Source of the DNA: an uncultured bacterium | GTDB lineage: Bacteria > Chloroflexota > UBA5177 > JANWHV01 | Assembly: GCA_963827235.1 (NCBI GenBank) | Contig: CAWHAE010000017.1 | Coordinates: 64,001-128,000, forward strand | Length of the DNA stretch: 64,000 bases | Direction of reading: 5' to 3' | Part shown: positions 10,086 to 63,561 of the stretch, piece after piece | Position numbering within the stretch: the stretch's first letter is position 1 | How the letters are laid out: every line of letters starts with the position of its first letter | The notes under the pieces: model-generated | What the model saw: only the letters and a program-made list of their open reading frames with translations | Told to the model about the DNA's origin: nothing | The model's database searches: none | Position numbers and translations under genes: made by a program

Positions 10086-10188
10086 TGAGGTACTTAACGT
10101 CAAATGACCGAGGTTTGGCGACGTAGGCACCATATAGATAGAGGAACATTCAATAAAGGTTGACACTGGGCCGCAACAGGCCCATACT
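10086..10188 (+). promoter_or_regulatory. Conserved regulon promoter module, copy P1
   Basis: Distal TGAGGTACTTAA (10086); proximal TAGAGGAACATTCAATAA (10139-10156); TTGACA 10160; 17-nt spacer ending GCC; CATACT 10183. Confidence 0.8.
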
Positions 10189-10283
10189 CGGAAGGAGCCC
10201 TCCCTCACGGCACCGTGTGCTCGCGGCCGCGCAGATTGAGCATATTTGCGCTCGTGGGACAACGGGAGAGCAGGAGGATGCGC

Positions 10284-10703
10284 ATGCCCACTTCGACATT
10301 GCGACGACTAGAGGACATCGGCGAGACGGTAGTGCATGCTGATGAGGATGTGCGCGGACGGAAGGTCCTTGACGACGGGGGTGACACCATCGGCACAGTG
10401 GACGGCTTGATGGTCGACGATGACCAGAACAGAGTGCGTTTCCTCCAGGTGGAGTGCGGCGGCTTCCTCGGCCTGGGCGCTACGCACGTGATGATACCCG
10501 TCGATGCGATTATCGGCATCACCCGCGATACGGTCACTATCGATCGCGGCGGACGGCACCTGCGCGGTGCCCCACGCTACCATCCGGCGCTCACGAAAGA
10601 GATGGATGAGCGCTACTGGCGCGGAGTCTACGGCTACTACGGCTTCGCGCCCTACTGGGGGGCGGGATACGTGTACCCGAGGTACCCGTACTGCAACCCA
10701 TAG
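10284..10703 (+). CDS. PRC-barrel protein with Tyr-rich C-terminal tail
   Basis: DVRGRKVLDDGGDTIGTVDGLMVD...GGFLGLGATHVMIP; AGGAGG RBS; paralog of 41095-41514 and 44157-44576. Confidence 0.9.
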   Translation: MPTSTLRRLEDIGETVVHADEDVRGRKVLDDGGDTIGTVDGLMVDDDQNRVRFLQVECGGFLGLGATHVMIPVDAIIGITRDTVTIDRGGRHLRGAPRYHPALTKEMDERYWRGVYGYYGFAPYWGAGYVYPRYPYCNP

Positions 10704-10849
10704 CGCCCGCCCGTGCCTCCACGCGCAACCATGGGGCCGGCGACTCCACGCCAGTTCACGCCTGCGCGTCCACTGGCGTCGTCTGGCTCGCGGCAGGGCT
10801 TGGCGTTTTGCGCCCACCGTGGGCCTTGACGAAAAAGGATTCAACGGCC

Positions 10850-11008
10850 TTCCTGGGCATCGCGCCCGATGACCGGCGAAACGCGACCAATGAGGGTGTC
10901 ATCTCCGCGGCGACCGGGAGGGTCGCAGTCCGCGTGATCGGCACAGACGAAGAACGGATGATCGCCAGGGACGTGTGCCGCGTCCTCGGCATCAGCACAG
11001 GAGAGTAG
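10850..11008 (+). pseudogene. ackA: Acetate kinase C-terminal remnant
   Basis: FLGIAPDDRRNATNEGVIS...[16 protein letters not shown], the AckA C-terminus, directly upstream of xfp. Confidence 0.75.
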
Positions 11009-11012
11009 CAAC

Positions 11013-16298: not shown

Positions 16299-16315
16299 GC
16301 AGGTGAGGAGAGGTG

Positions 16316-17430
16316 ATGAGCGGATTCACGTTGCGGCGCCTGGGACTGGTGATGGAGCCGGAGCCGGGCAATCCCCAGGAGGTCGAGGGTGTCCTGAATC
16401 CGGCGGCCGTTCGCGGACCAGATGGTAACCTGTACCTGTTTCCCCGCCTCGTGGCGCGGGGCAACTATTCGCGCATCGGCATCGCCCGCGTGCTCTTCAA
16501 CCAGTCCGGCGACCCGGCAGGCGTGGAGCGGCTCGGCATTGCCCTGGAGCCGGAAGCGGACTACGAGCGTCGGCCCGATGGCGGCGGTGGCTGCGAGGAC
16601 CCACGCATCACGTTCGTTGAACCGCTCCAGCGCTACGTGATGACCTACGCGGCATTCTCGCCCATCGGCCCACGCATAGCGCTGGCCATCTCGGAGGACT
16701 TGTTCCACTGGACGCGACTGGGACTGGCAACCTTTGCTGCCTATCGCGGCATCGATTTCGTGCATGTGGACAACAAGGATGCCAGCCTCTTCCCGGTGGC
16801 CATCGCCAATCACGCCGGCAAACTGCAGCTTGCCATGCTCCATCGACCGCTGTTTCCCGGCACGCGTCCCGAGGAAACCGCCCGCCATGCGGCCTCCCGG
16901 TTGGTGGATCTGGATCGAGAAAGCATCTGGATATCCTACTGCCCGATGGCGTTACCGGACCGCCCATCGCCGCACCTCGGCCTGTTCAATTCGCATCACC
17001 GGCTCGCCGCCCCGGTCGCACCTTGGGAGCGGCTCAAAATTGGCTGCGGCACACCGCCCATCCTCACCCGGCATGGCTGGCTGATTCTGTACCACGGCGT
17101 GAGCGCACTGGGGGAGCCGGGCAGCGACGGACATGCACTCTGCTACTCGGCCGGGGTGATGGTGCTGGCGACGGAGCATCCGCGTCTGATCCGCTATCGC
17201 TCGCCGGAGCCGGTACTGCGGCCGGAGTTGCCGAGAGAACGCGGCGGCACCATCGCCAACGTCGTGTTCCCGACCGGCATCGACCGGCGCGACGATCTCG
17301 GCACGCCGGACCGCTTCGACGTCTACTACGGGATGGCCGACGACCGCATCGGCGTGGCTTGCCTGGACGTGCCGGAGTTCTTGCCGCCCGGAGGTGTCCC
17401 CGACCCGCCGGAACCAGAGAGGCAAGGTGC
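16316..17430 (+). CDS. GH130 glycoside phosphorylase/hydrolase (3' end approximate; no stop before the ATPase)
   Basis: GVLNPAA, GCEDPRIT, NKDASLFP, MLHRP, KIGCGTPP, WLILYHGV, NVVFPTG, YYGMAD. Confidence 0.88.
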
Positions 17431-17551
17431 TCGATGCCGGGCGTGCAACAGCATGCATGAAACGTGTTCGCTCGCGCCTCGTCCACCGATGGTCCAGGAT
17501 CCCGCTGGGCCGAGACTGGCGGGAGGAAACAAGAACAGGAGGATAGCCACC

Positions 17552-20372
17552 ATGACACCACAGACAGATGCGGCGAAAGCTCCCGACGCGAAGGCTCCCG
17601 ATGCCAAGACTGCCGATGCGAAGGACGGATCGACGCTCGATGCGAAGGCCGCCGATACGAAGGCGCCCGAAGCCAAACCCGCTGTGAAGGCACCCGATGC
17701 GCGGGGCGATCCGGCGGCCCAATCGAAGCCGGATGCCAAGGACGATCTCAAGTCCCTGCCCATGGCGGAGGTGGAGAAACGACTGCAGTCGTCGCCGGAC
17801 GGCCTCACGCAAGCCGAGGCGCAGAAACGGCTGACCCAGTATGGACCAAACGAGATCGAAGAAAAGAAAGTCAATCCGCTCCTGAAGTTCCTCGGCTATT
17901 TCTGGGGTCCCATTCCCTGGATGATCGAAGCGGCGGTGGTGCTCTCGGGCATCGTGCAGCACTGGCCGGACTTCTTCATCATCCTTGTGTTGCTGCTCGC
18001 CAACGCCGTGGTCGGATTCTGGGAGGAACGCCAGGCGGGCAGCGCCATCGCCGCCTTGAAGGCCCAGCTGGCGATCAAGGCCCGCGTGAAACGCGATGGA
18101 AAGTGGATCACCCCGGCGGCACGGGAGCTCGTACCGGGCGATGTCATCCGCATGCGCCTGGGCGACGTCGTGCCGGCGGATGCGCGCCTGCTGGCAGGCG
18201 ACCCGGTGCAGGTGGATCAGTCCGCGCTCACCGGAGAGTCGCTGCCCGTCACGGTCTCATCCGGCGGGGCCGTGTATTCCGGGCTCGATCATCCGTCAGG
18301 GGGAAATCGGCGCCCTGGTCTATGGCACGGGTGCGAACACCTACTTCGGCAAGACCGCGCGGCTGGTGCAGGAGGCGCACACCGTCAGCCACTTTCAACG
18401 CGCGGTGCTGAAGATCGGCAATTACCTGATCATCCTCGCGGTGAGTCCTGGTGGCGGTGATTATCGCCATCTCGCTCCTGCGTGGCGACGCGGTGCTGAC
18501 CACGCTGCAATTCGCCCTGGTGCTGACCGTGGCGGCGATTCCCGTGGCCATGCCGACGGTCTTGTCGGTGACGATGGCAGTCGGTGCGCGCTTGCTGGCC
18601 AAGAAGAAGGCGATAGTCAGCAAATTGGTGGCCATCGAGGAGTTGGCGGGCGTGGACGTGCTGTGCACGGACAAGACCGGCACCCTGACCCAGAACAAGC
18701 TGACGCTGGGCGACCCGTTCAGCGTGAACGATATCCCCGCCGCGCAGGTGATCCTCGCCGGCGCGCTGGCCTCGCGCGCGGACAACGACGACACCATCGA
18801 TCTGGCCGTGCTGGGTGGCGTGAAAGACGACCAGGCCTTGAAAGGGTATCAGGTCGTCCATTTCCAGCCCTTCGACGCGGTGCATAAACGCACGGAGGCC
18901 AGCGTCAAAGGGGCGGACGGCAAGGCGTTCAAGGTGACGAAGGGCGCGCCGCAGGTGATCCTGGCCCTGTCGGCCAATGCCGGGCAGGTGCAGCCTGCCG
19001 TCAAGCAGGCGGTCGACGAGTTCGCGGCGCGCGGCTTTCGTGCCCTGGGCGTGGCGCGGGCCGAAGGAGACGGCGACTGGCAGTTTCTTGGCGTGTTGCC
19101 ACTGTTCGATCCGCCGCGGGACGATGCCAAGTCCACCATCGCGACCGCCCGTCAGATGGGTGTGACGGTCAAGATGGTGACCGGCGATGCCCTGGCCATC
19201 GCCCAGGAGACCGCCAAGAAACTGGGCATGGGCACGAACATTCTCGACGCCGGCAGCCTGGGCGACGTCAAGAAGCAGGAGACCACGGCGGTGGCCGAGT
19301 CCATCGAGCAGGCCGACGGGTTCGCCCAGGTCTTCCCCGAACACAAGTATCACATCGTGGATGTCCTGCAGAAACAGGGCCACATCGTCGGCATGACGGG
19401 CGATGGCGTGAACGACGCCCCTGCGCTCAAGAAAGCCGACTGCGGTATCGCCGTGTCGGGCGCCACGGACGCGGCGCGTGCGGCTGCGGCCATCGTGCTG
19501 ACGACGCCCGGCCTGGCGGTGATCATCGACGCGATCAAGGAGAGCCGCAAGATCTTCCAGCGCATGAACAGCTACGCGATCTATCGCATCGCCGAGACGC
19601 TGCGTGTGCTGTTGTTCATGACCCTGGCGATCCTGGTCTTCAACTTTTTCCCCCTGACGGCCGTGATGATCGTGATGCTGGCCTTGCTCAACGACGGCGC
19701 CATCCTGTCCATTGCCTATGACAACGTGCACTACAAGGATCAGCCCGAGGCCTGGAACATGCGCCTGGTGCTGGGCATCGCCACGGTGCTGGGCGTCGTC
19801 GGCCCCATCGCCGCGTTTGGCCTGTTCTATCTCGGCGATCGCGTCTTTCACCTCGCCCATCCGCAGCTGCAGACGATGATGTATCTGCTGCTTTCCGTAG
19901 CCGGACATCTGACGATTTTCCTCACCCGCACCCGTGGCCCGTTCTGGTCCATCCGTCCCGCGCGGATTCTGTTGGTTGCCGTATGCGGCACGCAAACGCT
20001 GGCGACGCTGATGGCGGTGTATGGGCTGGGGATCATGACACCCCTCGGCTGGGAATGGGCCTTGGTCGTGTGGGGCTATGCGCTGGCATGGTTCCTGGTG
20101 AGCGACCGGGTGAAACTGCTCGCGTATCGTTTCTTTGATCCGGCCAAGATCAAGACACCGATCGAGCGCGACACCGCGGACTCGCCACGACACCGTCCGA
20201 TTTGGGGCCGCGGATCGCCAAGGGTGCCTATGCCCTGTATGAGCAGCACGGCCGCCACGACGGCCACGCAACGGAGGACTGGCTGCAGGCGGAGCAGAAG
20301 GTCACGAAAGCCGACGCCACAAAAGAGGCCGTAGGGCGCCGCACGGCGGCAGGTCAGAAGAACGGACGATGA
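17552..20372 (+). CDS. Plasma-membrane H+-efflux P-type ATPase (IIIA) with DUF2934-like tail; three frameshifts (~18282, ~18448, ~20186)
   Basis: AGGAGG RBS at 17552 start; LTGES, PVAMP, DKTGTLT, KGAPQ, MVTGD, GDGVNDAPAL across frames; shifted tail IAKGAYALYEQHGRHDGHATEDWLQAE ends at an ATGA overlap with ppk2. Confidence 0.88.
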
Positions 20373-20658
20373 AAATCAAATCAAAGAACTTCTGTGTAAA
20401 GCCCGGAGAAGCGGTCAAGCTCGAAGAGCGGCCGACCGGCGTGCAGCCCCTGTACGAGTCGAAAAAGCAGTATCAGACAGTCCTGGAAGAACACGCCGTG
20501 GAGTTGAGCGCGCTGCAACGCCTGCACTACGCGTCCAGCCGCTACGCGCTGCTGCTGATCTTGGAGGGGATGGACGCGGCCGGCAAGGACGGCGCCATCC
20601 GGCACGTCATGTCCGGAGTCAATCCACAAGACTGCCAGGTGTTGAGTTTCAAACAGCT
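20369..20658 (+). pseudogene. ppk2: Polyphosphate kinase 2 family, N-terminal fragment
   Basis: LLLILEGMDAAGKDGAIRHVMSGVNPQDCQVLSFKQ, after which similarity stops. Confidence 0.8.
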
Positions 20659-20935
20659 GAGGAGCTGGAGCATGATGCAGTTTCGCAGTGTTCAGCAGTT
20701 GCGGCTCCGGTGGGAGGAGGAGACCGGCGTGGATCCGTGTGCGCCGGGGCCGGTCTGCCTGCGGGGGCCGCGCGCAACTGTTGGGCATCCTGCGCGCTAC
20801 GCGTCCACTCCGCCTTGGGCGAGCTACGGCGTGGGCATACGGCAGGGTGCCGCGTCGTGCACGTCGAAGCCGCCGATACCGTCATTCCGTACATGTGACT
20901 TCATGGAGTAGTCCGAACAGCTGGAGGAAGTACCA

Positions 20936-23115: not shown

Positions 23116-23120
23116 CAACT

Positions 23121-25017: not shown

Positions 25018-25249
25018 GCGTGCGTCGTTCCCGATGCCTTAAATGTTCAGCTTGGTCGCGGCGCCACAGCTGTACGGATCCAGGATAGCGCGCACCGGGC
25101 AGGCGCGCCGCGGCCGGCGTTCTTGCCCTTCCCGCATCGATGCTCCCCTGAGCAGCAGCATGGCGCTAGCGTCGGATCCGTCTGCTGATGCGGGCACGCC
25201 CGCCCAAGGTGCACATTATGGTTATGATCCTCATATATATTCCCTGCGC

Positions 25250-25400
25250 GGTGATCACCAGGCTGTGGGCAACGCTCGTCGCATTGACCTCGTTGACCGC
25301 AACGCTCCAGTTCTGGGGCACGGTAATGGTCATCTTGCCGTCTGACGCGCCGTTAAAGGCCCCGCTGCTCGTCGTGATCGTCATTGCGACTTCCCGTCTG
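25250..25400 (-). pseudogene. Sulfocyanin-like cupredoxin fragment
   Basis: FNGASDGKMTITVPQNWSVAVNEVN..VAHSLVI resembles the SoxE-type N-half; the C-terminal Cys/His/Met ligands are missing. Confidence 0.5.
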
Positions 25401-25603
25401 GCCGCGACTGCTTGTGTGACTGCAGACGTACCCAGGGCGTCTGGCAGCACGGCAACATGTACGGGTCGGTCGCGGATGAGACCGCAGAACTGGATGAGCG
25501 ACACAGGGACTGCCTCGCTGACACGCAGACGGTGGCCTGCAGTAGCCTGACGTGCGACCGCGTCCCACACGGCGTTCTGTAAACCCCCCGCCAAGCGATA
25601 TCA

Positions 25604-25706
25604 AGAGCTTATTCATAGAATACGACAGTATTATAGCCCTATCTCTGTGCCATATATAGATGGTATTTCGTCTATATTTGACAATAGGTGCCAAGACGCC
25701 GATACT
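25604..25706 (+). promoter_or_regulatory. Conserved regulon promoter module, copy P2
   Basis: Distal AGAGCTTATTCA (25604); proximal TAGATGGTATTTCGTCTA (25657-25674); TTGACA 25678; 17 nt ending GCC; GATACT 25701. Confidence 0.8.
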
Positions 25707-25842
25707 TTGAAGGAATCCCCCAGCCCGACATTTCAGAGGCGGACTGGCACTGCGGTGACATTGCAGGCGCACCGTACAGCGCCACTCCATCAGTGCCGTT
25801 CGCCGGCGATGCTCCGGGCAACCGTAAGTGAGGAAGCAGACG

Positions 25843-27855: not shown

Positions 27856-28092
27856 AGGCCGGCATAGAGACCGGAGTGCTGCGATCAAGGCAAACACGGA
27901 CAGATGTGTGACCGTGATCGAGCGCACGCGAGGAACTCGACTGTTATGGACGCAGTATGCTCTAGTTATAGGAAGAAGAGGCTGCTATCCTGGAGCAGGT
28001 GAAGTTGAAGTTCGTCCGGATAACGGCGCATCGATGGACTGGAGAGCTTGACCCCTGCTTGCGCGACCAGATGCACACATGGAGAGTTCAGG

Positions 28093-32779: not shown

Positions 32780-32892
32780 GGTGCGCAGCGCAGTAGCCCG
32801 CAACAACGACCGTCTGGGCACGCCTTCCGCATCGTCGACTCCTCCAGTTCGCCGCAGCCAAGATGGTCGCCCGTGAACTCGTCGAGATACAC

Positions 32893-32995
32893 TGAGCATA
32901 TTGCACTAATATGACAGGAGAGTTGCCACTGTTGAAGGGTATAGGAGTACCTTAGTACTTCTATAGTTGACGCCAGCCGCGTGCAAGCCCATACT
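32893..32995 (+). promoter_or_regulatory. Conserved regulon promoter module, copy P3
   Basis: Distal TGAGCATATTGC (32893); proximal palindrome TATAGGAGTAC-CTTA-GTACTTCTATA (32940-32965); TTGACG 32967; 17 nt ending GCC; CATACT 32990. Confidence 0.8.
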
Positions 32996-33211
32996 GTGAG
33001 AGGATCGACGTCGTGCCTGGTTGACGAGACGATCCACGGCCGGAGATTGTCGGTCGACCCTGCTGAAGCCGCGAATGGAATGGGAGCAAGCTCGCAGCCC
33101 GTCTCAATGGAGACCTGTGCAGGCAAGCCGAACGAGGCGTGCTGAGGTGAGGGGGCAGACCAGCACGGCCAATCAGCACCGTTTCTCACACAAGTGGAGG
33201 CGAGGGAACAG

Positions 33212-35525: not shown

Positions 35526-35733
35526 CTTCGTGACTGTTTCCTCTCGCTATGCACCGATTGACGGAAGTATCTGGGCCCATATCCCAGGTGCGTGGGCCAG
35601 CCGTATCCTCCCATGTGACCGTTGACGGAGTCACAAACGCCTTGGGCGACTCCTGGCGCAGGTCCCCGAAACGCCCACGTGTGCCAGCAACCCGGCCTTG
35701 CCAGAGCCAGTGATGCGGGTAGGGCTCCTCCAG

Positions 35734-35836
35734 AGTATGGGCGACTCCTACAGCAATGTCAACCATTAGTGAAGCATTCTCCATCTATGCACCCGAGAGT
35801 ACGCCATCCTCAGGTAGTATTGTCTGAATACCATGA
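35734..35836 (-). promoter_or_regulatory. Conserved regulon promoter module, copy P4
   Basis: Minus strand: distal TCATGGTATTCA; proximal TAGA-TGGAGAATGCTTCACTAA; TTGACA (35762-35757); 17 nt ending GCC; CATACT (35739-35734). Confidence 0.8.
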
Positions 35837-36033
35837 TAGAAACACCCGGATATCGCGTCCTTGAGCGCAACTATTGGTGATCTCATCATGGCTGACTGCG
35901 CACCGGTCCTGCCATCTCGCACGATCAATCATGATCGTGACATCGCCGCCGCACTTGCAGTTGGACCGTTCCCATGGGTTGCGCGCGCCGCGTTCGCCGT
36001 CCAACACGGCATGCAGCGCGGAGGCAGGGATCG

Positions 36034-36858: not shown

Positions 36859-37044
36859 CCGGATTATCTCTCCCCAGAAGAGCTTCGCCCCGCGAGACTC
36901 GAACATCGGCGCCGGATGTGCAAGGCCGCCAAACCGGGTGTCCCAGGTACGTCATCGAAGGGAACCGTCGTCCGCGCACCCATGCCCGCACGCTCAATCC
37001 ATGAACGCACCAGAGCGTGGCTGCCATCTCCTTCATCCCCTCGA

Positions 37045-37147
37045 AGTATGCGCGCTCGAGCATGCCCTGTCAATGTATAGTGACAAGTAACTCTAGCTAA
37101 CACCGAGATTACTTGCGCAACAGTTCACGATACTACGAGTTAGCTTA
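37045..37147 (-). promoter_or_regulatory. Conserved regulon promoter module, copy P5
   Basis: Minus strand: distal TAAGCTAACTCG; proximal TAGC-TAGAGTTACTTGTCACTA; TTGACA (37073-37068); 17 nt ending GCG; CATACT (37050-37045). Confidence 0.75.
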
Positions 37148-37441
37148 TGGTAATTATGGGGCTTCCAAGCAGGTGGGCTGTACGCGGCGTGGGCACCCCC
37201 ATACGCATCACACACGCCCCACGCTTCTCCTGTTGGGCATGGTGTTCACTGCCTTCGGGTGGCACACGCGCAGCAACCGTGCTGTGTTCTGGGCATCATC
37301 AATCATCAGTTCATCGCCGGTGCCCACACTAAGCGGCGGTAGACGGTACGTTCGATCCCGAGGCCTTCTCGCTTGACCAGATCAGCCAGACACTCAGAGG
37401 CCTCTGATCATACTGGCACAGCCATCGTGAGCTTAGGGGGA

Positions 37442-38832: not shown

Positions 38833-38918
38833 CGAAAACTCTCCTCTACTGGAGCTATGCTGTGTGACCGTTCGCCGCTGCCGCCGGTTGGGATCGGTTG
38901 TCATCGTGGCTCTCCCAA

Positions 38919-39021
38919 AGTATGGGCGTCTCTTACCGCAATGTCAACTATAGGCGTAGTAGTCTCCAATGATAGCTCGGACGACACGCGAGGTAGGGGT
39001 CGTATTGTGTGAATACCCTCA
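38919..39021 (-). promoter_or_regulatory. Conserved regulon promoter module, copy P6
   Basis: Minus strand: distal TGAGGGTATTCA; proximal TGGAGACTACTACGCCTA; TTGACA (38947-38942); 17 nt ending GCC; CATACT (38924-38919). Confidence 0.8.
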
Positions 39022-39064
39022 TAACAAGTCCAGCAAGGAGGTCTGCCACTGGCGCGCGACCGTG

Positions 39065-41514: not shown

Positions 41515-41606
41515 AGTTGCCCTCCTGCTCTGTCGATATCCCCCCGAACATGGCGCGTGTGCCAACTGCGTGATAATCAGCGCGCGGTGCCGAGGGGTTC
41601 CTCTGT

Positions 41607-41709
41607 AGCATGGGCTTCTTCCGCCCCAAAGTCAACCATAGATGAAATATCCTCTATCTAAAATCGAGTCAATGAGCTATAATCCGGTCATATACTATGA
41701 GGACCATAC
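41607..41709 (-). promoter_or_regulatory. Conserved regulon promoter module, copy P7
   Basis: Minus strand: distal GTATGGTCCTCA; proximal TAGAGGATATTTCATCTA (41639-41656); TTGACT (41635-41630); 17 nt ending GCC; CATGCT. Confidence 0.8.
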
Positions 41710-41942
41710 TATTAATTCCAGCTCGTGGCACTTCTGCGCGTTGTGGACGAGAGGAGGCGGCTATCTCACGGCTCTCCGGCATGCCGGCGTGCCGGACCGC
41801 CTTGTCCACTCTGAGAGCAGGGACATTCGACGGCCCCGCAGTCAGCGAGACGACGTGACGTGCGATGAGGTGCCCGGCGGCAAAGTCCCATACCGGTGAC
41901 CACGTGAGGGCAACACACGAAGCAAAGAGGAGGACATTGTTC

Positions 41943-44140: not shown

Positions 44141-44156
44141 CACACTCGGCCTACGA

Positions 44157-44576: not shown

Positions 44577-44668
44577 GTGTGTCCTCCTTCTCAGGCGTTG
44601 TCCCCGGTCACGGCGCGATGACCATTGCGCGGCATTCGGCTCGCGTAGGGCCGCGAGGGATCCTCTCT

Positions 44669-44771
44669 AGCATGGGCCTGCTGCGCCTCAATGTCAATCA
44701 TAGATGAAATATCCTCTAGCTATAAGCGGTAAGATGCGCTACAATTCTTATGAATGCTATTAGGATCATAA
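44669..44771 (-). promoter_or_regulatory. Conserved regulon promoter module, copy P8
   Basis: Minus strand: distal TTATGATCCTAA; proximal TAGAGGATATTTCATCTA (44701-44718); TTGACA (44697-44692); 17 nt ending GCC; CATGCT. Confidence 0.8.
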
Positions 44772-45088
44772 TATTAATACACACCGTGAGCCTCGGCAGG
44801 CCGCGGAAGATAGGAGGAAGGCTTCTCGAGACTCCGTAGCTGAGTGCACACGCATCGCGCCGCCGCGGCTACACCGTGAACGCGCAGGGCGAGGCGGACG
44901 ACATGGCAGGCTCATTAGCCGCCGGATACCGCACCCGGCAGAAGACCGTGACCGCGAACGGAGAATACACGATGCAGCGAGCGGAATTGGAGACAGGACC
45001 TTCACTCACTCGGCCCCTCGAGGTTCATCAGGCAGTTCTGAACGGATCACTGTAGGCACGTGGAAACGCATGTTAGGAGAAACTACTC

Positions 45089-45442: not shown

Positions 45443-45530
45443 GTAGCGCCGTGCGTCTTGCGAAACGCCGGCGCCTGAGGCCGGCCTACCCGGACACGCT
45501 AACAAGTGAGACGAGTTGGGAGAATCGAGC

Positions 45531-46199: not shown

Positions 46200-46288
46200 C
46201 AAGCCGCCGGCGGAAGCGACACGGGGGTTGCCGTTCGTAGCATGGCGACCGCGGTGAACGCGTGCACAACGTAGCGATGGGTGGGGGG

Positions 46289-47305: not shown

Positions 47306-47358
47306 GATCGCGCTTTTGGAACATCTTGTCGCCCATCGCTTGGCGTTTTGCCCTGGCT

Positions 47359-49278: not shown

Positions 49279-50000
49279 GGCGAGTCCTCCAGAAGCGTGA
49301 CACACTCACACGGTTCAACAACATCTCCAACTGCACGCCGGCCGCTCGAGCGGGCGTCAGTTGGCTGGGCAGAGCCGCCGGTGCCCTTACACGAAGGCTG
49401 TGGCTACATGCACGTGCAGCACCCCTACTGCGGCGTAGCTCCAGCTGACCTTCGCCGGCGTGTAGGGACTTCCACTTCGTCGATACCGTGCGCGCGCATC
49501 CAAATCCGATGATCTGCCACGACGCGCGCCAGATCGGCTCGCAAGGCAACCGCACGCTCCCGCGCCAACACGGATGGCTCCATGCCGCTTGGATCCGCTA
49601 TCGACCCTGTCCCGGCATACCGCCGTTCCGCTGCCTGGCGTGCCATCGTCGACTCCCGCAAATGGGCTCGCCAGGCGGCTGAGCGGTCTGCGCCGTCCTG
49701 CAACAGCCCATCGACGAGAGCACCTTCCTGGCGTATCAAACCATCAGGGCGTAAGCCGTGATCAAAGCGCACGCCGCGCCTCCTTTCGTACTCCTGCTAC
49801 CCACGAGCCGGGGGCGGGGCCGGCGCATGGCCATCCCTTGCCGCCACGCGAGCGACGTCGCCAGCCCACGCGGCTCTGGCATGCCCGCCGACGCCGTGCC
49901 CTTATGCTGGCGGCATTCTCAACCATGTTGGGCAGCATCGGCATCTCCTGGCACCGCATCGCTTCAGGAGTAGCTCCCGAGGTGCTGGCTGCCGATTCGT

Positions 50001-50103
50001 AGTATAGACCGGTGTCTTGTCGATGTCAATGATAACGAGAATAGTATAAACATAATCTTGGATGACTACGCCGAATTCTGCTCGTATGGTTGGAGTATCC
50101 TCA
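50001..50103 (-). promoter_or_regulatory. Conserved regulon promoter module, copy P9
   Basis: Minus strand: distal TGAGGATACTCC; TTGACA (50029-50024); 17 nt ending GTC; TATACT (50006-50001); points toward glgB. Confidence 0.7.
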
Positions 50104-50489
50104 TGCTAATTTCATGACAGTGAGTTGGGGCACGACAGAGTGAACGCGCAAACAAGATCCTCCCGAATGAAGCAGGCGATCTCCTGCTCGTGGTTACCGC
50201 ATTCGAGAGAGCCGTCGCCGCGCCTGGTCTTGCGGACCCGACGGTCACCCTGCCTGCTGTCTCGGGCGCGGTCGTAGCGCGCCTACCGGCACTGGTCTGA
50301 GGCAGCCGAGCAGGGATCAGCGACGCGCGCACCGGGGCGGTAAGTCGGCTTGCCCACTAGCTATCGTGGCGTCTCCACGCCGCTCAATGGCCCGATCCAC
50401 TGCCGCGCGTCGCGGGACCGGCCGCTGCAGTTGTCCACGGGCACGAGATCCGGTGCATTCGCCCGCTGGATCGATTGGCGCTTATTCAG

Positions 50490-50591
50490 TGATGATACTC
50501 ATAGCATAGAGTGGAAAGCCAGAGGTCTTCCATGCTATAGTGAGAATAATATAGGTCAATGGTTGACGCCGCCGGGCTGGAAGCCCATACT
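50490..50591 (+). promoter_or_regulatory. Conserved regulon promoter module, copy P10 (dnaK)
   Basis: Distal TGATGATACTCA (50490); proximal TAGT-GAGAATAATATAGGTCAA; TTGACG 50563; 17 nt ending GCC; CATACT 50586. Confidence 0.8.
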
Positions 50592-50729
50592 GTGACGGGA
50601 TGCGTGGCCTGTCTCGCAGGTTGGGTGGTCCCATGTCGGGCAGTGGAGACAGAAATACAGCCGGCCGGCTCAGCTGTTGTGGTAGAGAGGCGCGTGGCTG
50701 CATCCGCCGCGCGGGAAAGGTAGTCAACT

Positions 50730-52667
50730 ATGGGAAAAGTAATCGGCATCGATCTCGGAACCACCAATTCGTGTGTGGCGGTGATGGAGGGCGGCGAGCC
50801 GGTGGTCATCCCCAATGCCGAGGGCAGCCGCACCACCCCGTCGGTCGTCGCGTTCACCAAGACGGGAGAGCGCCTCGTCGGCCAGGTCGCCAAGAGGCAG
50901 GCAATCACGAACTCCGAGAATACCGTGTTCAGCGTGAAGCGCTTCATGGGCCGCAAGTATGCTGAGCCGGATGTCGATCGCGACAAGCGGCTTGTTCCAT
51001 ACAAAGTCACGGCCCGCCCGAACGGCGATGCCGCCATCGACGTCATGGGCAAGCAGTACGCGCCCGCCGAGATCAGCGCGATGATCCTGGGCAAGATGAA
51101 GACCGACGCCGAGGCATACCTGGGTACCAAGGTCACGGACGCCATTGTCACGGTTCCGGCGTACTTCAACAACAGCCAACGTGAGGCCACCAAGGATGCC
51201 GGCAAGATTGCCGGCCTCAACGTGCTGCGCATCATCAACGAGCCGACTGCATCGGCACTCGCCTACGGACTGGACAAGAAGAAGGACGAAAAGATCGCCG
51301 TCTACGACCTGGGCGGCGGCACCTTCGACATCTCAATCCTCGAGCTCGGCGACGGCGTGTTCGAGGTCAAGAGCACGAACGGCGACACACACCTGGGCGG
51401 CGATGATTTCGATCAGCGCATCATCAACTGGCTGGCCGATGAGTTTCGCCGCGAGCAGGGCATCGACGTGCGCGAGGACCGGGTCGCGCTCCAGCGCTTG
51501 AAGGAAGCGGCGGAGAAGGCCAAGATCGAGCTCAGCAGCGCGTTGACCACAGAGATCAACCTGCCCTTCGTCACCGCCGATGCCTCCGGGCCAAAGCACC
51601 TCGTGATTACGCTGACCCGGGCGAAGCTGGAACAGCTGGTCGGCGAGCTGGTCGAGCGGTCCAAGGGGCCGGTGAACCAGGCGCTGAAGGACGCCGGCTT
51701 GCGCCCGTCGGATGTCGACGAAGTCGTGCTCGTCGGCGGCCAGACCCGCATGCCTGCGGTGCAGGCCATGGTGCGGGAGCTGTTCGGGAAGGAACCGAAC
51801 CGCAGCGTGAACCCGGACGAAGTCGTGGCGATCGGCGCCGCGATCCAAGCGGGTGTGTTGTCCGGGGAGGTAAAGGATGTCCTCCTGCTCGACGTCACCC
51901 CGTTGAGCCTGGGCATCGAGACACTGGGCGGCGTCTTCACCAAGCTGATCCAACGGAACACGACAATACCCACGAGCAAGAGCCAGGTGTTTTCGACCGC
52001 GGCGGACAACCAGTCGAGCGTGGAGATCCAGGTGCTGCAAGGAGAGCGCGAGCTGGCCCAGTATAACAAGACGCTGGGCAAGTTCCACCTCGAAGGCATT
52101 CCGCCGGCACCGCGCGGCATGCCGCAGATCGAAGTCACGTTCGATATCGACGCCAACGGTGTGGTGCACGTGTCCGCCAAGGACAAGGGCACGGGCAAGG
52201 ATAAGAAGATCACCATTACGGCTTCCAGCGGGCTGGCCAAAGACGAGGTCGAGCGCATGGTGCGCGAAGCGGAGTCGCATGCCGCCGACGACACGCGCAA
52301 GCGTGAGGAAGTCGAGGCGCGCAACGCGGCAGACAACATGGTCTACAGCGCGGAGAAGACGATCGACGAGCACGGGAAGCGCATCAGCGGCGAGCTGAAG
52401 TCCGAGATCGAGCGACACATCGGCGATGTCAAGGCCGCGCTGAAGACCGACGACGTCGAACGCGTCATAGCCACGTCGGAGGCGCTCAAGAAAGCCTTGC
52501 AGGGAGTCGGCGCCGCGATCTACGGCCAACCGGGAGCCGCGGACGACCCCGCAAACGGCTCGAGCCCCAATGGCGGAGGCTTCGGCGGTCATGCTGAGGC
52601 CTACGGGAAAGCCGGGGCGCCAGAGCATGACGAGGACGCCGTGGAGGGCGAGTACCAGGAAGTGTAG
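50730..52667 (+). CDS. dnaK: Molecular chaperone DnaK
   Basis: [52 protein letters not shown]. Confidence 0.98.
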
Positions 52668-52670
52668 TGT

Positions 52671-53681
52671 ATGGAGTTTCGCGATTACTATGCCGTGCTG
52701 GGCGTGCCCAAGACGGCCTCGGAAAAAGAGATCCGGTCCGCGTTCAGAAAGCTGGCGCGCCAGCATCATCCCGATGTGAACCCGGGCAACGACGCCGCCG
52801 AGGCGCGCTTCAAGCAGATCAACGAGGCGAACGAGGTCCTCTCCGATCGCAATAAGCGCGCCGTCTATGACGCGCTGGGACCTCGCTGGAAGGAATACGA
52901 GCAGTATCAGGCTGCCGGCGGCACTGCCACGCCTGCCGAATTCGCACAGGCGACGGCAGAGCCTGCCCGGGCCGAAAGCGGTCCCGGCCAGACCGCGCGC
53001 GCCGGGCGGGGCCGCACACAGCCGACCCCAGAGGACCTGCGGGACCTCTTCGGCCAGGACAGCCCATACTCCGACTTCTTCCAGTCGGTCTTCGGCGACA
53101 CCCATGCCGCCGGCGCCACCGGCAGGCAGGCGAAGGGCGCCGACGCCCAGGTGGAAGTAGGCGTAACCCTCGAAGAGGCGTTCCGCGGCACGACCAGGCA
53201 CCTGCAGTTCGTCGATCCCTCGGGCGCCACACGCACGATCGAAGCACGCGTACCGCCAGGCGTGCGCGAGGGGTCGAGCATCCGCCTGCGCGGACAGGGA
53301 GGTGGAGGCCAGCATGGAGGCCCGGCCGGCGACCTCTACCTCAAGGTCTCGGTGGAGGCACACCCCCGCTTCACGCGGGACGGCGACGACCTGCGCCGGG
53401 AAGAACCCGTGGATCTCTATACCTGCGTGCTCGGCGGTGAGATCTATCTCGAAACGATCAAGGGCACCAGGCTTTCGGTACGCATCCCCGCTGAAACGCA
53501 GAATGGGAAGGTCATCCGGCTCAAAGGACAGGGCATGCCCCATCTCAAGCATCCGGGAGTTACCGGCGATCTCTATATCGTCGTGAAGGTCGTGCTGCCC
53601 GTGCACCTCAGCCAGGAGGAGCGTGACGTGTTTGGCCGCCTGGCGAAGCTGCGGGCAAGCACGGTGGGAGGGCATGCCTGA
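52671..53681 (+). CDS. cbpA: Class B J-domain protein (CbpA-like, no zinc finger)
   Basis: DYYAVLGV, HHPDVN, GDLYL, RLKGQGMP; no CxxCxGxG. Confidence 0.88.
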   Translation: MEFRDYYAVLGVPKTASEKEIRSAFRKLARQHHPDVNPGNDAAEARFKQINEANEVLSDRNKRAVYDALGPRWKEYEQYQAAGGTATPAEFAQATAEPARAESGPGQTARAGRGRTQPTPEDLRDLFGQDSPYSDFFQSVFGDTHAAGATGRQAKGADAQVEVGVTLEEAFRGTTRHLQFVDPSGATRTIEARVPPGVREGSSIRLRGQGGGGQHGGPAGDLYLKVSVEAHPRFTRDGDDLRREEPVDLYTCVLGGEIYLETIKGTRLSVRIPAETQNGKVIRLKGQGMPHLKHPGVTGDLYIVVKVVLPVHLSQEERDVFGRLAKLRASTVGGHA

Positions 53682-53956
53682 TGCCGCTCATCTACTATCG
53701 TGTCGAGGTTGTCCGCGAGCTGCTCGATCTCTCGCGCCCCCAGTTGCGCCGCTACCTGCAAGCCGGCCTGATCGCGGCCAGCGCCGAGCCCGAGAGGCCA
53801 GGCGGGCCGCGCCGCTTTACCGAGGAAGACGTGCGGCGCGCGCGGCGCATCCGGCGCCTCGAGCGGGACCTCGGCCTCAACCTTGCAGGGCTCGAGGTCG
53901 TGACGCGACTCGTCGATCAAATCGAGGCATTGCAGCGGCAGCTAGCTGAGCGTTAG
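53681..53956 (+). CDS. CbpM/HspR-like MerR-fold chaperone modulator
   Basis: LRRYLQAGLI...FTEEDVRRARRIRRLERDLGLNLAG; directly after cbpA. Confidence 0.8.
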   Translation: MPLIYYRVEVVRELLDLSRPQLRRYLQAGLIAASAEPERPGGPRRFTEEDVRRARRIRRLERDLGLNLAGLEVVTRLVDQIEALQRQLAER

Positions 53957-54030
53957 CGGCGCCGCAGAACGGCCGGCTGCTTGCGCCGTTGGGCGAGTCG
54001 CCCTGTATTCGACGCCGGCAGTCAATGTCA

Positions 54031-54110
54031 TCAATATCCTCATCAAAACAGACACAGTCTGGCGCATTCACATACTTATAATCTTAGGAAATTAAGACTA
54101 TACTGTAAGC
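54031..54110 (+). promoter_or_regulatory. Possible degenerate 13th module copy (boxes present, core promoter poor)
   Basis: TCAATATCCTCA (54031) and TAAT-CTTAGGAAATTAAGACTA-TAC (54079-54103) at module spacing, but TGTAAG in place of TTGAC. Confidence 0.35.
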
Positions 54111-54213
54111 GTGCTGATCCGGGATGCGACGTCGATGGACCAGCAGCCGGCACGAGGGAGTGTTGGCAAACGTGCGGCGGTGCCAGGCTGAGAAGGAAAC
54201 GACGGTCGACGAC

Positions 54214-55425: not shown

Positions 55426-55624
55426 CGTGCTTCGTTTCTTGCCCAGGTCCTGATACCTCCGCCGGGAGATCAATAGCAAAGTGCGCACAGGTTCAGCTGG
55501 CGGCGGTATGCGGACTGGCCAGGGTGGGGATCACGCGCGATTGGCGCAGCATGAGTGCCGTCACGACGACCTGCCGGCCCTCGCATGCGGCAGCCCATGC
55601 GAATGCGCCGACGCTGCATTGATT

Positions 55625-55727
55625 TGAATATGTTAAGAGTAAATCCCCGCGATACCGCGAATTCATCTAGATATAGTCGGAGTTAGCTCATGATAAGCTT
55701 GACTTTGGCCGCCAGGAAGCCCATAGT
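55625..55727 (+). promoter_or_regulatory. Conserved regulon promoter module, copy P11
   Basis: Distal TGAATATGTTAA (55625); proximal TAGT-CGGAGTTAGCTCATGATA; TTGACT 55699; 17 nt ending GCC; CATAGT 55722. Confidence 0.75.
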
Positions 55728-55790
55728 GGGATGCAGGCGGACTCGGCTCTGGCATGTCGAAGTACTGAGCACGCCGTTGGGAGGGAAAGC

Positions 55791-60423: not shown

Positions 60424-60633
60424 GCTGCCTGCGGGAGAAGCAGCTTGAGGGCCGCCGCGATACTCAGCGCGACGGCCCTTCTGCCTGTAGTGAGCGCTTC
60501 GCCGCGGAGTCGAGGCCGCGCGCAGGTTGAGCCTCGATGTAGTGGCGGTGAGAGTCAACCTGCGTCAACGCCTCTCCATGTCGGTCCACGCTGGCAGCGC
60601 CGGACGCAGCCCCTACCACCTACCGACCGACGA

Positions 60634-63180
60634 TCAACGCTGCCACAGGATGCGAGCGGATTCCAAGGGAACGGCAACGCCGTCGTAGAGCGGTATCACG
60701 CGCGCTGTATAATCCCCCGGTGGACGGGCCGCGGGTACAGACGCGCTGTACAGGTGGCCGCCCGGCACGCCGTCCAGTTGGCCGACGCGCCGCATCTCGT
60801 GCCGCACGGGAGCACTTCCGCCGACGCCGTCGCAATACAGCTCTACTCGCACTGCCTTCGGATCCAGCTCATGCAGATAGACCTCAACCTCAAAGTCATG
60901 CTGCTGCCCGCTGGTCGAAGCTTTCACGTTACCGAAGCGCAACATGGGCCAAGCCTTATCCAGAGCATACTGCCAGTCGACCACACGCCTGCCCACAGCG
61001 CCGTTGTCTGCCGCACGCGCACGGTAGCTTGCCGCGGCCGGGAGGTAATGCTGCTCGGTATAGTCGCGTTCACATCGACTTGCGGCAAAGAGCGGCGTCA
61101 GGCGCGTCATGCTTTCGCGCATCCGCGCAACCCAGGCGGCAGGAATGCCCTGGGCGTCGCGGGCATAGAACTCCGGAATCACCTCGCGCTCGAGCAGGTC
61201 ATACAGGGCTTCCGCTTCGGCCGCGTCCGACGCCGGATCGTCACCATGTTCCCGGCCATCGCCGAGCGCCCAGCCAACCTCAGGCGAATAGGCTTCCGCC
61301 CACCAGCCGTCGAGCACCGACAGATTGATACCGCCATTGACGAGCACTTTCATGCCGCTCGTCCCGCACGCTTCCCAGGGCCGGCGCGGCGTGTTGATCC
61401 AGACGTCTACGCCCTGTACAAGGCGCTCCGTCAGCAGCATGTCGTAATCACTCAGGAAGATCGCGTGAGGGCGTACGTCAGGTTGCCGGATGAACTGTAT
61501 CCACGCCTTGATGAGGTCCTGGCCCGCCTGGTCCGCTGGATGTGCCTTTCCGGCGATGATCAGCTGCACCGGACGCTGGGCATTGGTCAAGAGACGAAGC
61601 AGCCTCTGAGGGTCATGCAGGAGCAAGTCGGGTCGCTTGTAGGTCGCGAAGCGGCGCGCAAAGCCGAGCGTGAGGATGTTGGGACTGAAGAGACGCCTCG
61701 CGGCTTCGACCTCTTCGGGAGGAGCGCCGGCCGCGGTAAGGTCCAGAACCAGCCGTTCGCGGGCATAGTCCACGAGTGCCCTGCTCGCGGCCGTGCGAAA
61801 GCGCCAGAGCTGGGCATCGGAGACCCGGTGAATGTTCTGCTCCAAAGGTTGCGCGGTTCCCAGCCAGCGGTCCTTGCCACAGCTTTCCGTCCACAAATCG
61901 TCGGCAGGAGCCGAATCCCAGGTGGGCACGTGCACCCCGTTGGTCACGTGCCCGATCGGGACATCGTCCTCCGGCCAGCGGGGATACAGTGGCAGAAAGA
62001 GTCTCCGACTTACTGCCCCGTGCAAGCGGCTTACCCCGTTCACTGCCCCGCTGCCGCGGATTGCCAGATACGCCATGTTGAACTGCTCCAATGAGTCGGT
62101 CGCACTCTGGCGGCCGAGAGCCAGCAGGGCATCGAGTGCAATGCCAAGCTTCTCTTCGGCATAGCCGCCAAGGTATTGCTCGATGAGGGCGGGACTAAAG
62201 CGGTCGAAGCCAGCGGCCACTGCCGTATGCGTGGTGAAGAGATTGCCGGCTCGTGTGACCGCCAGCGCGACGTCGAACGGCTGTCCCGTCTCGTCCATGA
62301 AGTCGCGGGCACGTTCCAGGATAGCGAACGCCGCGTGCCCTTCATTGAGATGGCAGACCTCCGGTCGGAGCCCGAGGGCGCGGAGCAACCGCCAGCCGCC
62401 GATGCCGAGGAGCATCTCCTGTTTGAGGCGCAGCTCCGGCCCGCCGCCATAGAGCTCGCTGGTGATGCCCCGATGAGTGGGATAATTCGCCGCATCGTTG
62501 CTGTCCAGCAGGTAGAGCTTTATCCTGCCAACCTGGACCTGCCAGGCACGCAGCCAGACTGAGTAGCCGGGCAACGCGATCTCCAGGCGCAACCACTCCC
62601 CATCTGGTTGACGCAACGGTGTAATCGGCAGCTGTCCGGGGTCGTTGTACGGGAAGAGGGCCTGTTGCGCTCCATCCTTGTCGATCATCTGGCGGAAATA
62701 GCCCTGTTGGTAAAGCAATCCCACGCCAACTACCGGCACACCCAGATCGCTGGCCGCCTTGAGCTGATCGCCAGCCACGTTACCTAGCCCACCGGAGTAG
62801 ATGGGCAGCGCTTCGCTCAGCATGAACTCCATGCTGAAATACGCGACGCAGGTCAGGAGGTTCTCCGCGTGATTCTGCTGAAACCACGCGGGTGTTGCCG
62901 CTGCCTGGCGGCTGGCTGCGACCAGGCCGTCGACGTTCTTGCGGAAATCGGGATCGGTGAGCACGCGCTCGATCCGGTCGCGCGACACCGCCTGCAGCAC
63001 GACCCAGGGGTTATGCGTGATCTCCCACAGATCGGGATCGAGCTGCCGCCACACGTCGTCGGTGGCATGATTCCACGACCAATGCATGTCCAGGGCGAGC
63101 TCCGCCAGGGAATCGAACCCCTCGATTTCGGTGGGAAGCAGGTTGTAGATCGGGTGGCTGACACGGGATTGTTTGCTCAC
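60634..63180 (-). CDS. glgP: Alpha-glucan (glycogen/maltodextrin) phosphorylase
   Basis: AYFSMEF, YSGGLG, HLNEGH, FTTHT, NGVSRLH, FARRFATYKR, EACGTSGMK. Confidence 0.97.
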   Translation of the reverse strand: MSKQSRVSHPIYNLLPTEIEGFDSLAELALDMHWSWNHATDDVWRQLDPDLWEITHNPWVVLQAVSRDRIERVLTDPDFRKNVDGLVAASRQAAATPAWFQQNHAENLLTCVAYFSMEFMLSEALPIYSGGLGNVAGDQLKAASDLGVPVVGVGLLYQQGYFRQMIDKDGAQQALFPYNDPGQLPITPLRQPDGEWLRLEIALPGYSVWLRAWQVQVGRIKLYLLDSNDAANYPTHRGITSELYGGGPELRLKQEMLLGIGGWRLLRALGLRPEVCHLNEGHAAFAILERARDFMDETGQPFDVALAVTRAGNLFTTHTAVAAGFDRFSPALIEQYLGGYAEEKLGIALDALLALGRQSATDSLEQFNMAYLAIRGSGAVNGVSRLHGAVSRRLFLPLYPRWPEDDVPIGHVTNGVHVPTWDSAPADDLWTESCGKDRWLGTAQPLEQNIHRVSDAQLWRFRTAASRALVDYARERLVLDLTAAGAPPEEVEAARRLFSPNILTLGFARRFATYKRPDLLLHDPQRLLRLLTNAQRPVQLIIAGKAHPADQAGQDLIKAWIQFIRQPDVRPHAIFLSDYDMLLTERLVQGVDVWINTPRRPWEACGTSGMKVLVNGGINLSVLDGWWAEAYSPEVGWALGDGREHGDDPASDAAEAEALYDLLEREVIPEFYARDAQGIPAAWVARMRESMTRLTPLFAASRCERDYTEQHYLPAAASYRARAADNGAVGRRVVDWQYALDKAWPMLRFGNVKASTSGQQHDFEVEVYLHELDPKAVRVELYCDGVGGSAPVRHEMRRVGQLDGVPGGHLYSASVPAARPPGDYTARVIPLYDGVAVPLESARILWQR

Positions 63181-63458
63181 GATTTCTCCCTCGGATCATG
63201 CGTGACCGGGCCATCGCCCGCGACGTCCATTCAATCGCCTCATGCACGACCAGGTGCTCTCCGGATATCACCTCGGCAGACGGCTGGGGCGGTTTCACCC
63301 ACGGCTGCGAGTACCACGAAAGCCACGGTGTCCGACCAAGCCACGGCAGAATGGCGATACCACCAGCGGTTTGACGCCATCACTGCCCGCCACCCAATGC
63401 GAGGGCTGATGTGCGCTGCCGGTCATGTGCCAGGGTCGGTCACGGGCTGACTATATTA

Positions 63459-63561
63459 TTATGAAGCTCACACTATACATCCGAATTGTAGTGCATTCTC
63501 CCATCTATAGAAAGAGGATGTTTTACTGTTTGTTGACATTCGTTCGAGACGCGCCCATAGT
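63459..63561 (+). promoter_or_regulatory. Conserved regulon promoter module, copy P12
   Basis: Distal TTATGAAGCTCA (63459); proximal TAGA-AAGAGGATGTTTTACTGT; TTGACA 63533; 17 nt ending GCC; CATAGT 63556. Confidence 0.8.

Follow-up and report, generated by a model that had tools for sequence, protein, structure and literature searches.

The mycobacterial DosR regulon comprises many dispersed promoters that share one box, contains genes for universal stress proteins (USPs) and alpha-crystallin-type proteins, and has a role in dormancy. Tandem CRP/FNR arrangements (class I plus class II) place two dimer dyads ahead of a sigma-70-type promoter and on the same face of the helix, usually at -41.5 and -61.5. 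For sigma-32 of E. coli, passages of PMC6687850 give the consensus as TTGAAA at -35 and CCCCATWT at -10. HspR repressors with HAIR operators (CTTGAGT-N7-ACTCAAG) occur in Streptomyces and H. pylori, and passages of PMC6102357 describe HspR of H. pylori as protecting 70–80 bp, partly far upstream, through several dimers that bind cooperatively. PRC-barrel avaK genes of Anabaena are induced by dehydration, with several paralogues co-induced under one regulator in the OrrA response of strain PCC 7120 (passages of PMC9804601). The 64-kb window considered here is the whole stretch of DNA analysed, 64,000 nucleotides of contig CAWHAE010000017.1 from an uncultured member of the Chloroflexota, and its G+C content is 64.1%. 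It carries twelve copies of a promoter module in which two upstream dyads stand in fixed register to a -35 and an unusual -10 element. These twelve sites very likely form one co-regulated promoter class. A composite-promoter regulon is of a familiar kind, but this layout, its rigidity and its host are not familiar.

An earlier model-made description of this DNA, referred to here as the sequence-only reading, had listed twelve dispersed sites. All were recovered at the coordinates and on the strands that it gave, each having AT-rich DNA ahead of TTGAC, then 17 nt of spacer and a hexamer resembling CATACT. The regular expression TTGACN-N17-NAT[AG][CG]T, run on both strands of the window, returned exactly these twelve sites and no others. 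Likewise, TTGAC-N15-GCCCATACT with at most two mismatches matched the same twelve, against 0.23 ± 0.47 expected, and none of 100 dinucleotide shuffles reached 12 matches. Given the specificity of the expression and the outcome of the shuffles, the twelve-site pattern is real and far beyond chance. A core position weight matrix (PWM) scored the copies at 25.4–43.9 bits and the next best position in the window at 10.7; the best score in 1.24 Mb of other genomes was 14.9 bits.

The copies were aligned without gaps on the T of TTGAC, which is the zero point of all module coordinates. TTGAC is present in 12/12, as are G+20, A+24, T+25 and T+28, and C+21 to +23 are each found in 10–11 of the 12. These counts show the -10 to be an invariant 9-mer, GCCCATACT, where the earlier description gave a plain CATACT hexamer. 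The 17-nt spacer is kept in every module, in agreement with that description; counted to the 9-mer, 14 variable nucleotides follow TTGAC(A). Downstream of the 9-mer is a purine-rich GaaGGa..C at +31..+39, around the predicted start.

A sigma-70 definition (TTGACA, 16–18 nt, and a TATAAT-like hexamer with A2 and T6) covers the modules, with TTGAC, the 17-nt spacer and nATnnT in 12/12, and a sigma-70 consensus scan of 32000–51999 flags six of the eight modules there with 9–11 of 12 matches. The GCC preceding the hexamer lies outside this definition; neither the invariant GCC before CATACT nor the C at -12 is a feature of housekeeping promoters. Ordinary TATAAT-type promoters are used elsewhere in the window, for example the textbook TGGTATAAT near 3270, and GCCCATACT is therefore not simply the local form of the -10. 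Being invariant and partly sigma-32-like, the 9-mer makes a dedicated sigma factor possible. The 9-mer also bears a resemblance to the -10 of sigma-S (CTATACT, C at -13) and to that of sigma-28 (GCCGATAA); these are leads only.

Conservation is not confined to the core. Mean pairwise identity by block is 0.41–0.51 (-80..-41), 0.31 (-40..-31) and 0.41–0.46 (-30..-1) upstream. From there it climbs to 0.72 for the -35, drops to 0.31 across the spacer, peaks at 0.79 (+20..+29) and declines to 0.48 (+30..+39). Outside the module, up to -81 and from +40, it is at the background of 0.25–0.31. The module is thus about 120 bp long, with sharp ends at -80 and +39 and conserved blocks alternating with free ones. 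Such block-wise conservation is typical of selected sites, and the fall of identity in the spacer and at -40..-31, while it stays high in the boxes, indicates selection on the boxes. The best-kept upstream columns are T-79, A-72, T-65 and A-58, and T-25, A-18, T-11 and A-4 (10–11/12 each), with further conserved G/C positions at G-42 (10/12), C-41 (9/12), G-19 (9/12) and C-9 (8/12).

The sequence-only reading had placed a distal 12-mer 74 nt before TTGAC in eleven copies and 73 nt before it in one, with the consensus TGAK-GRTA-YTCA. Both the positions, with 50563 as the copy at 73 nt, and the consensus, derived here from column counts, were borne out. In a leave-one-out register test against an AT-rich background, offset 0 was best for the distal block in 11/12 copies and +1 in 50563; at offset 0 the score was positive in ten copies and -3.8 in 37073. 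The proximal box, which had been said to end about 3 nt before the -35, is in register with a positive score in 9/12. In 37073 its best offset is -1. Read forward, it is weak in 50029 and 55699; the opposite strand of 55699 gives a score of 20.0 at precisely the expected place. With the copies in their observed register, -82..-1 carries 49.1 bits of information, compared with 17.3 ± 1.9 (maximum 25.0) in 2000 random-offset sets.

In the entire upstream region, dyad symmetry is strongest about -68.5 (score 2.44) and about -14.5 (score 1.87), where the background is 0.07 ± 0.56, and the distance between these two centres is exactly 54 bp. The core-to-core distance and dyad character previously claimed are therefore correct. 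Compared as direct copies, the distal and proximal blocks agree best at an offset of 54, a score reached by none of 5000 column permutations; offsets 43 and 32 rank below it, and weak 11-bp direct repeats are present. The models of the two boxes also match each other's sites in other copies. The upstream region so consists of two versions of one dyad of about 24 bp, approximately ATAG.T.GAG.AT / AT.CTC.A.CTAT, the second of which ends 3 nt before the -35. An 8-bp periodicity was seen in the information content of -82..-1 in the twelve modules, reached by 0.25% of 2000 permutations with 15 periods tried; the best-kept bases are 7 bp apart.

The distribution of the module was addressed by scanning genome contigs with an alignment of PRC-barrel homologues, which gave 80 related loci and 1,235,293 bases, the best being 61–62% identical (metagenome-assembled genomes of Chloroflexia/Chloroflexota) and the source genome not being included. 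The module was absent from these loci by the full PWM (the single match above 8 bits is an artefact of a run of N), by the core and upstream PWMs, and by nhmmer --max at E ≤ 10. Nothing similar was seen by eye upstream of 28 Chloroflexota/Armatimonadota PRC orthologues. In a plasmid collection, 32000–56000 gave only dnaK-level matches, and one module searched in distant mode gave none. As far as seen in the 80 related loci, the module is therefore restricted to this lineage. Among named organisms, the PRC protein and DnaK have their best relatives in the Chloroflexota, with Ktedonobacterales at 72–76% for DnaK; closer protein relatives, mostly from metagenome sources, are at 65–81% for the PRC protein and up to 92% for DnaK. 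Searches of open-access text on promoter motifs of Chloroflexi/Chloroflexota, on stress regulons with PRC-barrel/DUF2171 proteins, on sites of HspR and on transcriptomes of Ktedonobacteria returned no description of the module, which is weak evidence of absence but agrees with the earlier view that the layout is undescribed. Literal module sequences gave primer noise only.

Likeness between modules is not explained by gene duplication, because modules before non-paralogous genes (35762 and 38947, 0.66 identity; 41635 and 25678, 0.61) are as alike as the three pairs before PRC paralogues (0.57, 0.57 and 0.73). Signs of a miniature inverted-repeat transposable element were not found: the longest flank repeats average 4.25 nt against 4.49 in shuffles, inverted repeats at the ends 4.25 against 3.88, and neither target-site duplications nor terminal inverted repeats rise above the shuffled controls. 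The sequence-only reading had considered the island horizontally assembled, which is not supported by a G+C that is flat at 0.62–0.68 across the window, nor by the lack in it of any tRNA gene or integrase. The sole mobile-element trace in the window is an IS630-family transposase-like fragment at 32043–32594 (-), just upstream of module 3, with E = 0.0012, far below the cut-off.

A same-strand coding open reading frame (ORF) lies downstream of all twelve modules. In eleven, a start preceded by a Shine-Dalgarno sequence is found 63–293 nt after the -10; in one (glgB) the distance is 695 nt. A total of 58 + 38 + 18 ORFs were scanned with Pfam and NCBIfam, and three paralogous PRC-barrel genes were found behind modules, followed respectively by xfp and a long sugar-phosphate/ATPase/PPK2 row, by a zinc alcohol dehydrogenase (ADH) gene, and by a USP gene. 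Of the gene assignments made before, Pfam upheld PRC-barrel, xfp, ADH, USP, BON, SPFH, methyltransferase, Hsp20, glgB and dnaK, while 'LEA-like', 'PH-like' and 'DUF2171' (for the last ORF) were not upheld by Pfam or NCBIfam; the ORF of module 12 has only a weak PRC match (E = 0.084). The twelve predicted transcription units carry stress-type genes, among them chaperones, Hsp20, USP, BON, SPFH, PRC-barrel and glycogen enzymes. This gene content suggests that the units may be co-regulated, with a role in stress or dormancy. The leaders share no k-mer beyond shuffles and no common motif beyond +40, and Rfam gave no match at the gathering score in the entire window and none at E ≤ 0.1 in 49250–50750.

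One promoter class with two phased upstream boxes fixed to the -35 and -10, ahead of a stress-type gene cluster, is thus supported as originally suggested. How it might work is less certain. Contact activation, in which a dimeric protein on two in-phase operators helps polymerase with a special-core sigma, has an even chance of being the mechanism. A dimeric or dimer-of-dimers DNA-binding protein would occupy both operators, which are about five helical turns apart and therefore on one face of the DNA, and would then contact RNA polymerase. The polymerase would carry a sigma-70-family factor reading TTGACA-N14-GCCCATACT, possibly a dedicated stress sigma and not the housekeeping factor, and the twelve units would be switched on together. 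Direct contact with polymerase, that is activation, is argued for by the single-nucleotide register held over 78 bp in unrelated promoters, since occlusion needs no such register.

Several points weigh against this reading. Dyad symmetry is moderate and not strict, and the proximal ends are ATAG in 7/12 and CTAT in 5/12. One box is degenerate in each of three copies: the distal box in 37073, the proximal box in 50029 and, by its 1-nt shift, the distal box in 50563. No 10–11-bp periodicity was found in the information content of the upstream region, and nothing is therefore claimed beyond the 54-bp spacing. All copy counts refer to one 64-kb window of a single genome. Activator-dependent promoters usually have poor -35 elements, whereas here 8/12 copies have a consensus -35 and all twelve have the optimal spacer of 17 nt. 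This near-perfect -35 and spacer favour either a sigma factor acting alone or a repressor; both are considered unlikely, and to the same degree.

In the first of these, a dedicated alternative sigma resembling the heat-shock or general-stress type reads TTGACA-N14-GCCCATACT and by itself defines the regulon. The AT-rich upstream DNA would then serve the alpha subunits or an architectural protein as bent or UP-element-like DNA and would hold no sites for a specific regulator. About 14 nt separate the two elements of the module, which recalls the spacing of E. coli sigma-32 promoters. The 9-mer is the most conserved part of the module, ordinary TATAAT promoters are present in the same window, and a near-perfect -35 and spacer suit a sigma-defined class. 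Set against the sigma-32 consensus in passages of PMC6687850, the -35 agrees at 5/6 positions and the 9-mer at 6/8, that consensus being E. coli's and a sigma gene having been sought in the window only. The likeness lies in the C-rich run that leads straight into AT in a long -10, in the TTGA-type -35, and in dnaK, dnaJ and a small heat-shock gene (hsp20) among the targets. The module run, however, starts with an invariant G, and its invariant T (T+28) is one position further downstream, at the -7 T of sigma-70 and not at that of sigma-32; the -35 is the sigma-70 consensus and the core scores 9–11 of 12 as sigma-70. Sigma-32 promoters are without a conserved 80-bp upstream region, and a plain UP element has neither dyads nor conserved G/C positions such as those at -42, -41, -19 and -9. 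RpoH itself is known from Proteobacteria. The host is non-proteobacterial, and the Pfam scan of the window found no sigma factor gene, rpoH-like or other.

In the second, an oligomer cooperatively covers about 80 bp of upstream DNA, perhaps also GaaGGa at the start, and keeps strong promoters shut until stress in an HspR-like manner. With their strong -35, spacer and -10, these promoters should work unaided. The conserved upstream span is 78 bp, close to the 70–80 bp that several dimers of H. pylori HspR protect (passages of PMC6102357), and the GC pair G-42/C-41 is exactly midway between the dyads. A third box at the start is only weakly indicated, the half-site block resembling +28..+37 with a score of 1.1 (standard deviation 0.61), and the second box of a variant site at 54025–54101 would overlap a TATAAT -10. 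HspR/HAIR systems, as described in the same passages, likewise bring a chaperone operon and a small heat-shock gene under one control and have a MerR-like gene at the end of the dnaK operon. Modules contain no HAIR box, however: the window has two matches, with three mismatches each, against 1.33 expected, and both are outside the modules. The inner arms are GAG-N4-CTC in the module and GAG-N9-CTC in HAIR, a difference of 5 bp. In addition, the module sites are entirely upstream of the -35, nothing overlaps the usual repressor position between -35 and -10, and the dnaK module is among the two most divergent copies. The CIRCE inverted repeat has no match in the window with up to three mismatches.

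The MerR_2 protein of 91 aa at the end of the chaperone unit (53681–53953) bears on the same question, having the look of an autoregulating HspR. DafA is the DnaK–DnaJ assembly factor of Thermus, and the layout of this dnaK unit resembles that of the Thermus dnaK operon. The protein reaches 49.3 bits, against an NCBIfam HspR cut-off of 105, and its best solved relative is DafA (9dvi_S, E = 2e-5). At half the cut-off and DafA-like, it is more likely to be a chaperone partner than a regulator, and it is probably not the repressor. The chaperone unit itself (50730–53956) consists of dnaK, a DnaJ gene without the zinc-finger domain and the MerR_2 gene, with no grpE between.

The sequence-only reading had instead proposed a LuxR/NarL-type, DosR-like response regulator that binds the two boxes and activates a dormancy island, which is very unlikely. 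The phased two-site geometry is real and one copy (50563) does contain TACTCAT. As in the DosR regulon, dispersed promoters have a common box, USP and Hsp20-type genes are included so that gene content overlaps in kind, and dormancy is the proposed role. The heptamer TACYYMT, however, is not enriched (3 matches in 2/12 modules, against 1.31 ± 1.14 in shuffles, of which 14% reach 3), and no heptamer pair is present. The conserved T/A/T/A are 7 bp apart within a 24-bp dyad, not arranged as a 7-2-7 heptamer pair. The DosR box is a single GC-rich 20-bp palindrome, unlike two AT-rich dyads in register with an unusual -10, and has no match in the window with up to three mismatches. No LuxR-type helix-turn-helix (HTH) gene was found among the scanned ORFs of the window.

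That there is no regulon, the copies having been spread by a small mobile element or by gene-plus-promoter duplication, is hardly credible: three modules do precede PRC-barrel paralogues, two of them 73% identical, and the IS630-like fragment is present, but 9/12 modules precede unrelated genes, all 12 are promoter-oriented, target-site duplications and terminal inverted repeats do not exceed shuffles, and recent spread would give likeness along the entire length instead of background identity in the spacer and at -40..-31 with high identity in the boxes.

Two further systems were compared. Tandem CRP/FNR sites resemble the module in their two dimer dyads, which lie on the same side of the helix ahead of a sigma-70-type promoter, and the distal consensus has the form TGA-N6-TCA. 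This sequence, which in CRP/FNR-type sites is the core of a 22-bp dyad, is present at the distal box in only 2/12 copies (GA-N6-TC in 4/12), on which ground a CRP/FNR-type site was rejected; the module centres, at about -50 and -104 from the predicted start, also differ from the usual positions, and no cyclic nucleotide-binding or Crp-type gene was seen in the window by Pfam. We know of no DNA motif common to the module and the OrrA system. The latter is likened to it by its co-induced PRC-barrel paralogues but is found in another phylum, and the passages of PMC9804601 give no binding site.

The earlier statement that no regulator is recognisable in this window is true for the LuxR/NarL type but not in general. 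An OmpR-family response regulator and kinase are encoded at 6803–8874, 1.2 kb from module 1. A CarH/LitR-like MerR HTH ORF starts at 28093 and loses its coding appearance after about 85 codons, where a PAS-HisKA-HATPase frame (28328–29665) takes over. No evidence links any of them to the module. The region 28093–29665 (+) may be a frameshifted or fused HTH-kinase or two overlapping genes, and is followed by a KaiC-like double ATPase (29682–31340).

Coordinates of the modules and of two weak variant sites are given in Table 1. Eleven of the twelve modules qualify as AT-rich islands (80-nt window, A+T at least 55%); four other islands (2132–2218, 3195–3339, 6328–6407 and 54001–54147) are without a module. 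One of these four holds the textbook TGGTATAAT promoter, and 54001–54147 contains the variant site, between the dnaK unit and a Kelch-repeat gene and upstream of the latter; the TATAAT hexamer that its second box would overlap is at 54077–54082.

Table 1. Modules and possible variant sites in the window, with targets predicted from position and strand
Feature	Position (strand)	Distal dyad	Proximal dyad	-35 element	-10 9-mer	Predicted start	Boxes	Predicted targets	nhmmer E
Module 1	10080..10199 (+)	10080-10103	10134-10157	TTGACA 10160-10165	GCCCATACT 10180-10188	~10195		PRC-barrel, xfp, class I fructose-bisphosphate aldolase, further + strand genes to ~22516	2.6e-20
Module 2	25598..25717 (+)	25598-25621	25652-25675	TTGACA 25678	GCCGATACT 25698-25706			BON gene, then SPFH gene	7.4e-21
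Module 3	32887..33006 (+)			TTGACG 32967	GCCCATACT 32987-32995			Ala/Asp/Lys/His-rich repeat protein with C-terminal hydrophobic stretch (33212-33784), then 134-aa protein (33816-34220); no Pfam family	2.6e-17
Module 4	35723..35842 (-)			TTGACA 35762	GCCCATACT 35742-35734			124-aa protein (35151-35525)	4.6e-22
Module 5	37034..37153 (-)			TTGACA 37073	GCGCATACT		Weakest copy; distal score negative, proximal shifted 1 nt	S-adenosylmethionine methyltransferase	1e-10
Module 6	38908..39027 (-)			TTGACA 38947	GCCCATACT			Hsp20 (38275-38904); PRC-barrel gene (37442-37936) further downstream	7.6e-22
Module 7	41596..41715 (-)			TTGACT 41635	GCCCATGCT			PRC-barrel gene (41098-41514), then zinc ADH	1.8e-23
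Module 8	44658..44777 (-)			TTGACA 44697	GCCCATGCT			PRC-barrel gene (44160-44576), then USP gene	1.5e-21
Module 9	49990..50109 (-)			TTGACA 50029	GTCTATACT		Weak proximal box	Next clear gene glgB (47359-49305), 695 nt downstream	4.1e-15
Module 10	50483..50602 (+)			TTGACG 50563	GCCCATACT		Distal box 1 nt closer	dnaK, zinc-finger-less dnaJ, 91-aa MerR_2/DafA-like gene	1.6e-16
Module 11	55619..55738 (+)			TTGACT 55699	GCCCATAGT		Proximal dyad better on other strand	66-aa hydrophobic protein, then 1458-aa protein	4.2e-17
Module 12	63453..63572 (+)			TTGACA 63533	GCCCATAGT			ORF cut by window end	4e-20
Possible variant site	54025..54101 (+)	54025-54048	54078-54101	No TTGAC	No GCCCATACT		Two dyad-like boxes 53 bp apart; single-box PWM 9.7-15.4		8.3 (weak)
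Possible orphan single box	27946..27969 (strand unassigned)						PWM 10.3-11.9	~125 nt upstream of MerR-type HTH ORF at 28093	1.9 (weak)

Divergent genes at 41865–42653, 45089–46199, 25166–25594 and 60637–63180 point away from modules 7, 8, 2 and 12; they encode a CDGSH iron-sulfur protein, DUF5335 and DUF2171 proteins, a sulfocyanin-like protein and a glycogen phosphorylase. Since the distal dyad sits in the upstream DNA of these genes, the boxes might act in both directions. The ORFs at 33816–34220 (+) and 35151–35525 (-) encode, from their translations, closely similar paralogues of about 125–135 aa with no Pfam or NCBIfam family, in two module units oriented towards one another. The stretch of about 690 nt that separates module 9 from glgB (49306–49990) has no convincing ORF or Rfam match and may represent a long leader, a small gene that escaped recognition, or an RNA. 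Within the row of module 1, at 16313–20911, a GH130 domain shares a single ORF with the N-terminal part of a P-type ATPase; the ATPase continues in the next ORF (18451–20334) with part of the E1-E2 domain missing between; the PPK2 ORF that follows matches only profile positions 3–67 of 229. These broken ORFs may be frameshifts, pseudogenes or assembly errors.

A wider proposal can be put forward tentatively, and is itself rather doubtful: that a stress/dormancy programme of Chloroflexota runs through an undescribed system, in which a dedicated sigma would read TTGACA-N14-GCCCATACT and a regulator would bind two in-phase 24-bp operators 54 bp apart, keeping some 80 bp of upstream DNA in a constant register with polymerase. 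If only the ordinary reading is true, with one regulon and one regulator, this is a solid, unsurprising addition. Should a dedicated sigma and a two-operator regulator both be involved, it would be a new regulator–polymerase architecture and the first defined stress regulon in Chloroflexota. Transcription control is scarcely known in this phylum, whose members abound in soils and deserts and are known for persisting. Twelve repeats of a 120-bp layout within 54 kb provide a handle on it, with the DNA as bait for the regulator and the 9-mer as a means of finding the sigma factor. The listed genes also make up a set of candidate persistence proteins, many of them without known function, including the PRC-barrel, DUF2171, DUF5335 and BON proteins, the repeat protein and the unnamed paralogue pair.

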